In this document: piece by piece, positions 8,659 to 14,641 of the stretch
Layout: every line of letters begins with the position of its first letter
Numbering within the stretch: position 1 is the stretch's first letter
NCBI RefSeq assembly: GCF_044324875.1
Contig: NZ_CP172185.1
DNA length: 64,000 nt
Source of the DNA: Escherichia coli
Lineage (GTDB): Bacteria; Pseudomonadota; Gammaproteobacteria; Enterobacterales; Enterobacteriaceae
Strand: one strand, 5' to 3'
Notes under the pieces: model-generated
What the model saw: only the letters and a program-made list of their open reading frames with translations
The model's database searches: none
What the model was told of the DNA's origin: nothing
Position numbers and translations under genes: made by a program

Positions 8659-8691
8659 GCCTGATAAAACGCTCGCTGCGTTTTATCAGGC
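8659..8691. terminator. Bidirectional hairpin between convergent dtpD and phr
   Basis: Palindrome gcctgataaaacgc...gcgttttatcaggc overlapping the phr stop. Confidence 0.5.
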
Positions 8692-10104
8692 TCCTTTCCT
8701 CGCTTCTTCGTACGCTGCCAGCGTTCGCAGCCTTGCCTCTTTATGATCAACTATCGGTTGCGGATAATCCAGCGTCACACCTGATTTATCTGCCCACTTC
8801 CACGGCTCATGCACCACTTTCCCTGGCACATCGCGCAGTTCCGGTAGCCACTGGCGGATAAACTCGCCTTCGCGGTCAAATTTCTCGCCCTGGGTTGTCG
8901 GGTTAAAAATACGAAAATACGGCGCTGCATCGGTTCCGGTTGAAGCGGCCCACTGCCAGCCACCGTTATTAGCTGCCAAATCACCATCAATCAGCTGCGA
9001 CATGAAATATCGCTCGCCTTCGCGCCAGTCGATCAACAAATCTTTCACCAGAAAACTGGCTGTAATCATCCGTAGCCTGTTATGCATCCAGCCAGTGCTG
9101 TTAAGCTGACGCATGGCAGCATCGACAATCGGGTATCCCGTTTTGCCTTCCTGCCAGGCCTGTAAATGTGCGGGATTGCTCTGCCACTGCACACGATCCG
9201 TCCAGGCAATAAACGGACAATGTTTACACAACGAGGGGTAATACGTCATCAGATGACGGTAGAACTCGCGCCAGATCAGCTCACTAAGCCAGACACTACC
9301 GGCCCCACCGTCCAGCGCCTGCGGCTGTTCCGCCAACAAGCGATGCAAACACTGGCGAGGCGATAACCCGCCCGTTGCCAGGCTGGCGGACAAACGACTG
9401 GTGCCTTCCACTGCCGGAAAATCTCGTTGTTGCTCATATTCTCCGGCACCGTTCTGGCAAAACTGGCGTAATTGCGCAATCGCAGCTTTTTCTTCCACCG
9501 GGAAATGCGCAGTATCGAAAGGCTGACGAGGATAATTCAGCGTAATGGATGGCGCGGGAGCTATCGATCCGCTACTACGTACTTTTGGCGCAGCGACGCA
9601 CTCCGGCATCCCTTCTCGCAGCCGTTTCAGCCAGGCGTTTTTAAATGGCGTAAAAACTTTGTACATCTCATGATTGCCAGTCATCACCGCCCCCGGCGGC
9701 AGGATCACGCTGTCATCAAATCCTTCACACACCACGTTACGCAGCGTTCTCTCAACCTGCACATCCCGCGCCCGCTCATTCACCTCATACTGATAGTTAT
9801 AAAAAAGATGAGTAACGCGGTTTTCCGCGCACACCTGATTAACTGTTTCGACACTGGCGGCAAAGTCATCCACTTCACGGAACAATAAAGGAATACCTTT
9901 TTCTGCCAGTGCTGTTTGTAGCCCGTTCAGTTGCGCATTGATAAATTCAGCCTGACGCGGCGACATATTATGCGCTGCCCACTGGCGCGGTGTGGCTATA
10001 TACAGCGCCAGCACGCGTGCAGACGAATTGCGGCAGGCGGCAGCCAGTGCGAGATTATCGTGCAGACGTAAATCCTGGCGAAACCAGACCAGATGGGTAG
10101 TCAT
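8686..10104 (-). CDS. phr: Deoxyribodipyrimidine photolyase
   Basis: ORF 8686..10143; internal start MTTHLVWFRQDLRL gives 472 aa; FAD-binding photolyase C-terminal domain. Confidence 0.9.
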   Translation of the reverse strand: MTTHLVWFRQDLRLHDNLALAAACRNSSARVLALYIATPRQWAAHNMSPRQAEFINAQLNGLQTALAEKGIPLLFREVDDFAASVETVNQVCAENRVTHLFYNYQYEVNERARDVQVERTLRNVVCEGFDDSVILPPGAVMTGNHEMYKVFTPFKNAWLKRLREGMPECVAAPKVRSSGSIAPAPSITLNYPRQPFDTAHFPVEEKAAIAQLRQFCQNGAGEYEQQRDFPAVEGTSRLSASLATGGLSPRQCLHRLLAEQPQALDGGAGSVWLSELIWREFYRHLMTYYPSLCKHCPFIAWTDRVQWQSNPAHLQAWQEGKTGYPIVDAAMRQLNSTGWMHNRLRMITASFLVKDLLIDWREGERYFMSQLIDGDLAANNGGWQWAASTGTDAAPYFRIFNPTTQGEKFDREGEFIRQWLPELRDVPGKVVHEPWKWADKSGVTLDYPQPIVDHKEARLRTLAAYEEARKGA

Positions 10105-10610
10105 AAAACTCCTGCATGGCGCAAGTGAATAATACGCGGCCAAAGTTCGAAATAACGCTGCCCTGAAAGCCAGGCGTCAGGATAAAGCGCCATATAGTGT
10201 TTGATACGCATCAGCGGCGCAAGAAGCGGTTGCTCGCCACGGCGATAACTGTCGATAAGCGCCGCCAGCTGCTGGCGTTCTGTGGAATCAATATGTGGGC
10301 GAAAATATCCCTGAACGTGCATCAAAACGTTAGTATGATCACGCCGGTTGGCAGGGTGAGAAAGCAAAACAATTACGCGTTGGCGGTACTGGTTGTAATA
10401 GTCATCCAGATTTTGCCACCGGTGAATATCTGCCACGAACGGGCCAAGTTTGCGGTACTCGGGCTGGGAATGGGCCAGAAAGACGAGTTTATAGCGGCTG
10501 TGATAATCGTTGAGTGCCCCGCGCGTTAAGCCATGTTCTTTCAGTCGATGTAACTCGTGGAGAGCGAAGATACGGATTAGGGTGCTTTCATCAAATCGTT
10601 GCTGATTCAT
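10101..10610 (-). CDS. ybgA: DUF1722 protein, upstream partner of phr
   Basis: 169-aa ORF; its stop overlaps the phr start. Confidence 0.8.
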   Translation of the reverse strand: MNQQRFDESTLIRIFALHELHRLKEHGLTRGALNDYHSRYKLVFLAHSQPEYRKLGPFVADIHRWQNLDDYYNQYRQRVIVLLSHPANRRDHTNVLMHVQGYFRPHIDSTERQQLAALIDSYRRGEQPLLAPLMRIKHYMALYPDAWLSGQRYFELWPRIIHLRHAGVL

Positions 10611-10694
10611 TACTGCTCCTGAACGGTTTACAGGAGTAAGTGTAGACGGCAGTATTGAAAAAACGAAACGAATAAATGAGATCGGTAAAGAAAT

Positions 10695-11102
10695 TCAATA
10701 ACTCATAATAAATTTCATGGTGGCGATAAATAGTTTCTTTTCTTCATCACTCATGGTAGAAGCGTTTAACATGTTGCCATAAAATTTACTGATGATATTT
10801 TTTAATTGCAGCAAATGCAAAGGAGAAAAATAGTCACTCCCGATGAGATTACTCAATACCAGCAATAATTCTCCATTATATAAATAACCTACCATAAGAT
10901 TAATCTCTATCATCTCAATTGCTTTTTGTACAGCAAGCGCTGGTAAGATATTCTGACGAAGCATTTTGGCAATATCATTTTCATCCAGTTCATCCGGTGT
11001 TTTATCCAATAAAGAGTTATACCAGTTTATTAAACCACTTTTGAAAGCGAATGAATCATATTGCAGGTGATAAATCTGTTTTAGGGTTTCTTTATTTTTC
11101 AT
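10695..11102 (-). CDS. Hypothetical protein (135 aa) in an AT-rich islet
   Basis: ORF in a very AT-rich stretch; 12 bp downstream of the 94-aa ORF on the same strand; no family recognised. Confidence 0.45.
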   Translation of the reverse strand: MKNKETLKQIYHLQYDSFAFKSGLINWYNSLLDKTPDELDENDIAKMLRQNILPALAVQKAIEMIEINLMVGYLYNGELLLVLSNLIGSDYFSPLHLLQLKNIISKFYGNMLNASTMSDEEKKLFIATMKFIMSY

Positions 11103-11114
11103 TTTATAATGTCT

Positions 11115-11399
11115 TTATTTGCTATGATTTTTCTGATTTAATTCTATATCATTTAAAGCATTTTCAAGCCAATCATCCATGTTCTTAATTTTAGCCCGCT
11201 CATACAAATCATGCACAACATCTTCATAACGCCGTCCATCATTGACCATACAATTAGCTGTATGAGGCAGAACATGTATAAAATCAGACAATATAAAACA
11301 AGCCTTTGCATTTCCAGAGTTAGCTGCAGTTCTGATATCAATCAAGCCTCTGGCAATTAATTTAAGAATAACACTAACATCTTGCATTTTAATTTCCAT
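11115..11399 (-). CDS. Hypothetical protein (94 aa) in an AT-rich islet
   Basis: ORF in the AT-rich islet, co-oriented with its neighbours; no family recognised. Confidence 0.4.
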   Translation of the reverse strand: MEIKMQDVSVILKLIARGLIDIRTAANSGNAKACFILSDFIHVLPHTANCMVNDGRRYEDVVHDLYERAKIKNMDDWLENALNDIELNQKNHSK

Positions 11400-11481
11400 A
11401 TCATCCAGTTAAATTTTAGTCGTAAATCGTCTATCTAAAAAAGATGAAATTAACATTTATAAATTTATTACAATATAAAAA

Positions 11482-11835
11482 TCAAAAATATACATCATCA
11501 GCTTCTACTGAAAACTCCATGGCTCCTAAGGCACCTAAATCAATACTAAATATGGTATCACTTTCCTTAGCACTCCCAACATAGATAAAATAGCCTAAAT
11601 CCCCATCCTGACCTATCAAAAAATAGTCAGGCTCCACTCGTTGAATATCATATGTTTCATTTCTTTCAATAAGATCAGAATAGTTATACAGATATAATAT
11701 TTCATGCTTCTTATTAGTTATTTCATAGGCCTCACTATCTTTAATTTCTTCTATTAAGAAACGTTTATACACTGGAGGAAATTTGATTGACATGTCAAAT
11801 TCAATTTTATTTATATATTCTATGATTTTATTCAT
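11482..11835 (-). CDS. SUKH/SMI1-KNR4-like protein (putative orphan immunity protein, 117 aa)
   Basis: Motifs FPPVYKRFL and DYFLIGQDGDLGYFIYVGS resemble the SMI1/KNR4 (SUKH) immunity family; AT-rich; no toxin gene upstream. Confidence 0.5.
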   Translation of the reverse strand: MNKIIEYINKIEFDMSIKFPPVYKRFLIEEIKDSEAYEITNKKHEILYLYNYSDLIERNETYDIQRVEPDYFLIGQDGDLGYFIYVGSAKESDTIFSIDLGALGAMEFSVEADDVYF

Positions 11836-12069
11836 GTTAAGAATACCTGAGCGGTTAATTATCGGTTATTGTGATGAATATATATTCGCTTTTAATTTTC
11901 AATAACTCATCACGGAAATACATATTGCTTTGTAGGCAAGCGCTAATAATACTTTATGAACCTGACTTCCGCCAGATATTCAACCTAAATATTCATGACG
12001 CAGTAATGTTTTAGAAAGCCACTAACTGCCCAGATAGTGCATCATCTACTACATTGGCGATTATACTCT

Positions 12070-12258
12070 AAATAATTCAAGTTGCAGGAAGGCGACAAGC
12101 GAGTGACAAATTCGTCAGGAACGAATTTGCCCAGTCGCAGGCTGACCTTCGGTGAGAGACATGGATGTCTCTCATTAATCCCCAGGAGCTTACATAAGTA
12201 AGTGACTGGGGTGAACGAACGCAGTCGCAGCACATGCAACTTGAAGTATGACGAGTAT
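12070..12258. repeat. ERIC (enterobacterial repetitive intergenic consensus) element
   Basis: Contains the ERIC core cccaggagcttacataagtaagtgactggggtga and the flanking gcatgcaacttgaagtatgacgagtat. Confidence 0.55.
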
Positions 12259-12302
12259 ATAAAAAACCCCTGATTCCAGTTCCTTGTGCTGCGATCCTAA
12301 CC

Positions 12303-12337
12303 AAAAAAAAACCGCCAGCGTTTCCGCTGGCGGTTTT
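12303..12337 (-). terminator. Rho-independent terminator downstream of ybfA
   Basis: Stem ccgccagcg/cgctggcgg with a 4-nt loop; 9-nt T-run on the minus strand. Confidence 0.7.
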
Positions 12338-12359
12338 CAATGTATTCAGAACTCAGCAA

Positions 12360-12566
12360 TCAGTAAAAATCACCGGTTGCCTTTTCGGCCTGATCCATCC
12401 AAACCGGTTTATCGCTGGTTTTCGACCAGACGCGATGCAGATAGCTGTAAAAGCGGGCGCGGTCTTTCCAGAAAAGCATGAAAGGCAGCGCCAGAACGCC
12501 CACTGCAACCGCATAAGTACGGCGTAAAAAGATAAGCCATGCAGGATATTCTCTGTAGAGTTCCAT
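12360..12566 (-). CDS. ybfA: Small DUF2517 membrane protein
   Basis: 68-aa [17 protein letters not shown]..., divergent from kdpF. Confidence 0.75.
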
Positions 12567-12775
12567 ACTTTTCTCCCCCTTTTGTATCTACCCGGTGAAT
12601 GGCACCGGAAAAATGAATTCGTTTATCTGATGAAAATAGTACCGCCTTTTGTGTAATTTTACTACTCATCCGACCACTTATTTTTGCTTATTGATGGTTT
12701 ATTTACATTCACCGTGTAATTAAGTTACACAAAGGTTAAATTAATACTAAACATTAGTTAAATCATGGCTTTTGC

Positions 12776-12878: not shown

Positions 12879-12968
12879 GTGAGTGCAGGCGTGATAGCCG
12901 GCGTGTTGCTGGTGTTTTTATTACTGGGTTATCTGGTTTATGCCCTGATCAATGCGGAGGCGTTCTGA
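12879..12968 (+). CDS. kdpF: K+-transporting ATPase small subunit F (29 aa)
   Basis: GTG start; peptide [29 protein letters not shown]; stop overlaps the kdpA start (TGATG). Confidence 0.8.
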
Positions 12969-14641
12969 TGGCTGCGCAAGGGTTCTTACTGATCGCCACG
13001 TTTTTACTGGTGTTAATGGTGCTGGCACGTCCTTTAGGCAGCGGGCTGGCGCGGCTGATTAATGACATACCTCTTCCCGGTACAGCGGGCGTTGAACGTA
13101 TACTCTTTCGTTTACCTGGCGTCTCTGACCATGAGATGAACTGGAAGCAGTATCTCTGTGCCATTCTCGGCCTGAACATGCTGGGGCTGGCGGTGCTGTT
13201 TTTTATGTTGCTCGGTCAGCACTATCTGCCGCTTAATCCACAGCAGTTGCCGGGGCTGTCGTGGGATCTGGCGCTGAATACTGCCGTCAGCTTTGTCACC
13301 AATACCAACTGGCAATCTTACAGCGGTGAAACTACGTTGAGCTATTTCAGCCAGATGGCTGGCTTAACGGTGCAAAACTTTCTTTCTGCCGCCAGCGGGA
13401 TTGCGGTGATTTTTGCCCTCATCCGTGCGTTTACCCGCCAGAGCATGAGCACACTCGGGAATGCCTGGGTCGATCTGCTACGCATCACGTTATGGGTGCT
13501 AGTCCCTGTGGCGTTGTTGATCGCACTGTTTTTTATTCAACAAGGTGCGCTGCAAAACTTTCTGCCCTATCAGGCGGTGAATACCGTTGAAGGAGCGAAA
13601 CAGCTGTTACCAATGGGTCCGGTGGCTTCTCAGGAAGCGATCAAGATGCTCGGCACTAACGGCGGTGGCTTCTTTAATGCCAACTCGTCGCATCCGTTTG
13701 AAAACCCAACCGCACTGACCAACTTCGTGCAAATGCTGGCGATCTTCTTGATCCCAACAGCGCTGTGCTTTGCCTTTGGTGAAGTGGCGGGCGATCGTCG
13801 TCAGGGGCGCATGTTGCTGTGGGCGATGTCAGTGATTTTTGTCATCTGCGCAGGCGTGGTGATGTGGGCAGAAGTTCAGGGTAATCCTCATCTGCTGGCG
13901 CTGGGCGCGGACAGCAGCATCAATATGGAAGGTAAAGAGAGCCGTTTCGGCGTGCTGGTCAGTAGCCTGTTTGCGGTCGTGACTACGGCGGCTTCCTGCG
14001 GCGCGGTGATTGCGATGCATGATTCGTTTACCGCCCCCGGTGGCATGGTGCCGATGTGGCTGATGCAAATTGGTGAAGTGGTATTCGGCGGTGTCGGTTC
14101 TGGTCTTTACGGCATGATGCTGTTTGTCCTGCTGGCGGTGTTTATTGCCGGGCTGATGATTGGTCGTACACCGGAATATCTGGGTAAAAAAATCGACGTA
14201 CGCGAGATGAAACTGACCGCACTGGCGATTCTGGTCACCCCGACGCTGGTGCTGATGGGCGCGGCGCTGGCGATGATGACCGACGCCGGACGTAGCGCCA
14301 TGCTCAACCCGGGCCCGCATGGTTTTAGCGAAGTGCTGTACGCCGTGTCATCCGCCGCTAACAACAACGGCAGCGCCTTTGCCGGATTAAGCGCCAACTC
14401 CCCATTCTGGAACTGTTTGCTGGCGTTCTGCATGTTTGTTGGTCGCTTCGGGGTGATTATTCCGGTGATGGCAATTGCTGGTTCGCTGGTGAGTAAAAAG
14501 AGCCAACCCGCCAGCTCCGGCACACTGCCTACGCACGGCCCGCTGTTTGTTGGCCTGTTAATCGGCACCGTGTTGCTGGTTGGCGCACTGACCTTTATCC
14601 CTGCCCTGGCGCTTGGTCCGGTGGCGGAATATCTCTCCTGA
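12968..14641 (+). CDS. kdpA: K+-transporting ATPase subunit A
   Basis: 557 aa from [12 protein letters not shown]...; multi-pass membrane protein. Confidence 0.95.

Follow-up and report, generated by a model that had tools for sequence, protein, structure and literature searches.

A genuine ERIC/IRU repeat of the long form lies at positions 12062-12259 of a 64,000-nucleotide stretch of Escherichia coli DNA (the window), between an AT-rich islet and the terminator of ybfA. This copy of the family probably inserted as a unit, in a MITE-like manner, after the junction between the islet and ybfA had formed. A first-pass annotation of the same DNA had proposed that the ERIC may show where loss or replacement of an Rhs element left a junction. 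The setting behind that proposal, an islet at the RhsC site with a link to Rhs biology, was recovered in our comparisons, but the ERIC is not at the junction, and the sequences compared here indicate that it is most likely an ordinary copy of the repeat and not a scar of Rhs loss.

The ERIC element and its internal insert

The layout of the region was read from the RefSeq annotation of the identical region in strain 118UI and from the open reading frame list. The genes phrB and ybgA (ybgA at 10101-10610), on the minus strand, are the left-hand neighbours of a variable site. The site holds the AT-rich islet (10649-12061, minus strand; GC content 0.28-0.37), which comprises three orphan immunity-type ORFs and a 227-bp upstream spacer, and whose right end lies just left of the ERIC. 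Further right are the intrinsic terminator of ybfA (12307-12338, minus strand), found by a terminator scan as a 14-bp stem with 8 G-C pairs; ybfA itself (12360-12566, minus strand), a conserved right-hand neighbour of 68 aa that appears in both the ORF list and the RefSeq annotation; and, beyond ybfA, kdpFABCDE on the plus strand (RefSeq annotation and ORF list). The ERIC is extragenic, with the 117-aa ORF of the islet (ORF117) on one side and the ybfA terminator on the other, just where the first-pass annotation had placed it.

The element spans 198 bp including its flanking TA dinucleotides, and its plus strand is defined as the orientation in which the complement of the ERIC1R site lies ahead of the ERIC2 site. 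These are the sites of the standard ERIC-PCR primers (sequences as in PMC3696847), and they lie back to back, ERIC1R at 12174-12195 on the minus strand (20 of 22 positions, 2 mismatches) and ERIC2 at 12196-12217 on the plus strand (21 of 22, 1 mismatch); dinucleotide shuffles put the number of such matches expected by chance at 0. The 32-nt palindromic core is exact at 12180-12211, which is its single occurrence in the 64-kb window, against an expectation of 0. Core and primer matches together define a central inverted repeat at 12177-12217 (plus strand). On either side of it are a left arm at 12064-12105, delimited by invariant or near-invariant alignment columns, and a right arm at 12218-12257, delimited by alignment, both on the plus strand; each includes a terminal inverted repeat, and the two pair with one another in the predicted fold. 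The outermost parts are the left and right TA (12062-12063 and 12258-12259) of a putative target-site duplication, which was reconstructed by comparison with the sister haplotype described below.

Family similarity was measured against genuine ERIC copies at other loci, in place of a published ERIC/IRU consensus. The alignment partners were the ERICs at panC-rpnC in O157, at yeiS-preT in AST262, upstream of gyrA in GN03139 and at cusF-cusC in K-12. The block of homology with these four copies from unrelated loci extends over 12063-12259 (from 12062 in 4 of the 5 copies), is bounded sharply by TATACTC...GAGTATA, and has unrelated flanks. The true limits of the element are 12062-12259; the limits assigned earlier, 12070-12258, miss the first 8 bp and the last one. 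Used as a megablast query, the ERIC matched 29,851 places in 5425 of 5426 complete E. coli genomes, with a median of 6 per genome, counts that are a lower bound, and no annotated feature lies beneath any of the matches in the RefSeq genomes listed. Elements of this type (ERIC, IRU or RU-1) were reportedly described by Sharples and Lloyd in 1990 and by Hulton et al. in 1991. The window copy resembles them in its core, arms, terminal inverted repeats, TA ends, extragenic site, dispersed copies and stable stem-loop. It differs in having a few private substitutions and in measuring 198 bp against the canonical 127 bp, because a 71-bp block interrupts its left arm.

This internal insert (12106-12176, plus strand) defines the long form and is missing from the 127-bp copies (L009 and L011), while an insert 97% identical is present at the same site in the ERICs at panC-rpnC (L002) and upstream of gyrA (L010). 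Its removal in silico leaves exactly 127 bp, with a full-length identity of 97.6% to the cusF-cusC copy of K-12 and of 96.9% to the yeiS-preT copy. This good match to real copies, together with both primer sites, the exact core and the four-copy alignment, confirms the original recognition of an ERIC element at this position. The insert alone is predicted to fold into three short hairpins (-26.8 kcal/mol). Insertions inside ERIC sequences are said to have been described in 1997 both by Sharp ('Insertions within ERIC sequences') and by Cromie, Collins and Leach, and these two reports, along with that of Wilson and Sharp in 2006, reportedly concern insertions of about 70 bp at fixed sites. We take the 71-bp insert to be equivalent to the insertions of Sharp and of Cromie et al., partly on the strength of the copies aligned here. 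The window copy shares with the known long variants an insert of about 70 bp, a fixed internal site and an insert that itself folds into hairpins, and it differs from them in nothing substantive.

Two of the partner copies showed features of their own. The ERIC upstream of gyrA in GN03139 (L010 1501-1776) is 276 bp long and contains two inserts, the 71-bp one in the left arm and one of about 79 bp in the right arm; the two are related, lie in the same orientation, and have stems with compensatory changes (CAAATTCGT/ACGAATTTG versus CAAATCCGC/GCGGATTTG). In the long-form ERIC at panC-rpnC in O157 (L002 2478-2529), 7 bp of the left arm, CAAGTTG, are tandemly duplicated.

Occupants of the RhsC site

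The variable site has the same limits in every type of occupant compared. Its left breakpoint follows GTGTAGACG (window 10648) and is common to K-12, a B2 strain with an empty site, a sister islet and the window. Its right breakpoint is the A-run of the ybfA terminator (12303-12311; a U-tract on the minus strand), common to K-12, a locus with an RHS core (L005), the empty-site strain, the sister islet and the window. At this right end, divergence begins immediately left of the ybfA terminator in the window, K-12, L005, L004, L007 and L008. Across 5426 complete genomes, the site is empty in 1309, where ybgA abuts ybfA, and contains the islet in 170, always at the ybgA-ybfA locus. The islet occurs as a short form with the ERIC in about 157 genomes (156-157) and as a long form without it in 14. 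The remaining genomes have other occupants, and the three that were examined are Rhs elements. In K-12 the occupant is the RhsC element of about 9.6 kb, made up of rhsC, ybfB, an orphan Rhs C-terminal fragment with ybfC, and ISAs1 remnants. Judged by its breakpoints, the islet is an occupant of this RhsC site, and the ybgA-ybfA interval behaves as a cassette site with fixed breakpoints, which may be empty or may hold either an Rhs element or an islet of immunity genes alone.

The islet agrees with the K-12 RhsC element in chromosomal site, in breakpoints and in gene orientation, which is that of Rhs immunity genes. It differs in lacking the Rhs core, the toxin tip and the H-rpt/ISAs1 remnant and in having only three immunity-type ORFs, and the K-12 element differs in turn in containing no ERIC. 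RefSeq likewise annotates three small ORFs and nothing else in the islet. ORF117 (11482-11835, minus strand) is a putative orphan immunity protein of the SUKH/SMI1-KNR4 type, with a match to Pfam SMI1_KNR4 (E=2e-4) that is below the cut-off. Its homologues carry the name SMI1/KNR4, and those in E. marmotae and Cronobacter (L036-L043 8001-8363), with 69-70% identity, follow PAAR-Rhs-Tox-SHH toxins at a distance of 20 bp, in loci that VgrG and DcrB genes adjoin. The middle ORF (11115-11399, minus strand) encodes a hypothetical protein of 94 aa in the ORF list, is 273 nt long in RefSeq, and has no Pfam match. The third (10695-11102, minus strand) encodes an orphan immunity protein of 135 aa in the CdiI_3 family (Pfam PF18616, E=3.9e-17; RefSeq annotation). 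Searches for a remnant of Rhs-Tox-SHH in 10600-12400 found none, the best tblastn match to the last 400 aa of two such proteins having E=1.4, and neither tblastn nor blastn with Rhs-Tox-SHH C-termini found an Rhs core or toxin remnant beside the ERIC. From its gene content, the islet is an orphan toxin-immunity cluster of the Rhs/CDI type with no toxin gene.

Variation at and around the site extends beyond its occupants. Strain B1.H1.18 has an IS1 inserted in an otherwise identical islet (H31/H91, NZ_CP146564.1 4619066-4621893). Strains also differ to an unusual degree in the core genes on either side of it. When window 8686-10610 and 12968-14641 were set against L001-L035, identities to the window were 93.9-97.9% for kdpA, 91.3-97.5% for phrB and 90.4-97.6% for ybgA, even where the islet is 100% identical. 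The divergence of these flanking core genes suggests frequent recombination around the site.

The sister haplotype and the origin of the ERIC copy

The long islet, found in 14 genomes, is a sister of the window's islet, with five ORFs and an overall identity of about 92%. Divergence between the two haplotypes is 6.9% in ORF117 together with the spacer beside it, and there is almost no variation within either. The sister islet (L007 2955-3790; L008 3551-3670) has about 790 extra bp and two further small ORFs, and in some of its genomes an IS630 transposase fragment is annotated. It meets the ybfA terminator at the same A-run without an ERIC, and this junction is uninterrupted in 14 of 14 genomes. 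The ERIC is missing from all 18 sister loci that were read (L007, L008 and L020-L035) and present in all nine sequences examined that have the window's haplotype, namely the window itself and eight further loci. No ERIC was found at the empty sites of 1309 genomes, in the complete RhsC element of K-12 or in two further Rhs haplotypes, and thus there is no sign of ERICs as recombination partners in the versions of the site that were compared.

The edges of the element were located by comparing the two haplotypes. The window has 240 bases more than the sister (12066-12305 in the alignment), and the left edge of this difference is exactly the ERIC terminus. The right edge coincides with the other end of the ERIC only if a second event of about 44 bp is assumed. 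Deletion of 12064-12259, that is, of the ERIC and one TA, yields GATTATAAAAAACC, where the sister has CATTATAAAAAAACC; the sister sequence recovered in this way is ATTATAAAAAA(A)CC. Ends in TA and duplication of the target site are among the ERIC properties given in PMC2229807 Table 1. The coincidence, to the base, of the left edge of the difference with the ERIC terminus and a duplicated TA is the signature of insertion or excision of an element, and not that of a rearrangement scar.

The second event concerns a flank immediately right of the ERIC and outside it (12260-12311). About 44 bp of this flank, consisting of 34 unique bases and a second A-run, are specific to the haplotype, with direct repeats of AAAAAACC on either side (12261-12268 and 12306-12313). 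They occur in 157 of the 5426 E. coli genomes, only in the window's haplotype and always at this locus, and are missing from the sister haplotype. No relatives of the flank were found in the region upstream of rhsC in K-12, in the other haplotypes or in any fetched locus, and a 27-mer from it had 0 matches in JGI metagenome contigs. These bases would form an indel separate from the ERIC insertion. Megablast homology between the window and about 5250 other, islet-less genomes breaks at 12303-12306, which is 44-47 bp right of the ERIC; taking the junction as the whole of 12303-12311, it lies about 44-52 bp away from the element that had been thought to mark it.

In the course of events that we favour, the junction between the islet and ybfA would have formed first, and the ERIC would then have entered, as one piece, a TA that lies some 10 bp away from the A-run of the terminator, duplicating that TA. 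Whatever else distinguishes the window from the ERIC-less sister would be due to a separate indel of about 44 bp, and the ERIC, a non-autonomous element in an AT-rich spacer, would have been carried passively since. An element of this kind would resemble bacterial MITEs with TA target duplication, such as Correia/NEMIS and RUP, in being small, in having terminal inverted repeats flanked by TA, and in occurring as filled and empty alleles in related genomes. It would differ from them in that ERIC is not known to have a parent insertion sequence or a transposase that moves it.

As to polarity, we infer that the ERIC was inserted in the window lineage and not precisely lost in the sister. The reverse history, in which the ERIC and the 44-bp flank were ancestral to the islet and the sister lost both by precise excision or deletion, seems rather unlikely to us. 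It would fit the greater abundance of the ERIC-bearing form, which was found in 156-157 genomes against 14 for the sister, a ratio of about 11, the depth of the divergence between the haplotypes would have left time for either event, and palindrome-induced deletions in ERICs are reportedly on record from Sharp and Leach in 1996. However, loss requires two deletions, or else one that ended by chance exactly at the ERIC terminus, and the sister sequence resembles an intact TA target. The sister haplotype is also the more diverse in the sampled loci, with 4 distinct sequences among 18 loci against 1 among 9 for the ERIC haplotype, which weakly favours the ERIC-bearing form as the younger, and one sister variant is named E. 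fergusonii by a source. An outgroup for the islet spacer was sought with a 23-mer that is invariant between the haplotypes, and none was found in 100,044 species-representative genomes. The one match, in Flavobacterium degerlachei (L044 249-275, NZ_FNMV01000001.1), was exact or nearly so over only 23-27 nt, had no surrounding similarity and was dismissed as chance.

It is very improbable that the ERIC was left by, or served as a substrate for, recombination and so marks the junction of an Rhs loss or replacement. That reading gains some plausibility from the occupation of the RhsC site by orphan immunity genes of the Rhs/CDI type, from the position of the ERIC within about 50 bp of the right breakpoint, and from the hypothesis that ERIC-like repeats contribute to plasticity in Xenorhabdus (PMC3184786). 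Yet the sister haplotype has this junction and no ERIC, the 1309 empty-site genomes and the Rhs versions examined offer neither an ERIC nor a partner with which one could have recombined, the breakpoint is the A-run of the terminator and not the ERIC, and no remnant of an Rhs core or of Tox-SHH abuts the element. What these comparisons favour remains insertion of the ERIC into a junction that already existed.

Predicted fold, possible function and significance

The ERIC is predicted to fold very stably on either strand, with an MFE of -86.2 kcal/mol (plus) and -81.5 kcal/mol (minus) and z values of -9.0 and -8.6, respectively; none of 200 shuffles folded as stably. The predicted shape on both strands is a long stem from which side hairpins branch. 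No Rfam family is dedicated to ERIC, and the Vibrio RNA AS5 family (RF02818, V_AS5) matched the element end to end (window 12061-12255) with 35.6 bits and E=7e-5, the gathering score being 96. The V_AS5 family itself appears to be built on an ERIC-type repeat. Sub-threshold Rfam matches to ncr1175, BSnc120, Thr_leader and NsiR1 all fell over the ybfA terminator and were set aside as chance or terminator look-alikes. A consensus scan of 11700-12700 found no sigma-70-like promoter on the minus strand.

If transcribed, for example by minus-strand read-through of the ybfA terminator towards the immunity genes, the ERIC would form a long stem-loop, and in Yersinia the ERIC stem-loop is reported to alter mRNA stability in an orientation-dependent manner (PMC2229807, PMC10969869). 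The window copy could accordingly be imagined as a functional cis-acting RNA element with a hairpin that modulates either ybfA read-through or how stable the immunity-gene mRNA is. The very stable structure predicted for both strands would suit such a role, as would the position of the ERIC, which separates the first immunity ORF from the ybfA terminator, both of them on one strand. We nevertheless regard it as distinctly unlikely. The sister haplotype retains the same genes without the ERIC, the scanned minus strand has no promoter-like site, and palindromic repeats fold stably whether they have a function or none. That the ERIC encodes a small RNA homologous to V_AS5 is extremely improbable: the Rfam match extends from end to end, but its score is far under the gathering score, and the match is explained by ERIC-type repeats that are also present in Vibrio. 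We infer that a locus-specific function of the ERIC is absent and that it is an inserted repeat carried along with the islet.

A more consequential outcome, though decidedly unlikely, would be an ERIC that is not neutral, in which a hairpin of about -80 kcal/mol gates read-through or stabilises the immunity-gene mRNA, combined with the use of the filled and empty pair as a substrate for finding the mobiliser of ERIC. Were this so, the effect of the hairpin would help to explain why the ERIC-bearing islet is so much commoner than its ERIC-less sister, and the allele pair would be clean natural material for tracing what moves ERIC.

The type of element is already familiar, as ERICs, their long variants and their presence or absence among strains have been described since the 1990s and in 2006. 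For this locus, the practical consequence is that an ERIC at the RhsC site is not to be read as a marker of Rhs loss. The positive results, both of them minor, are the recognition of ybgA-ybfA as a fixed-breakpoint cassette site and the allele pair, a clear case of filled and empty forms with a TA duplication that is consistent with the MITE-like view of ERIC.
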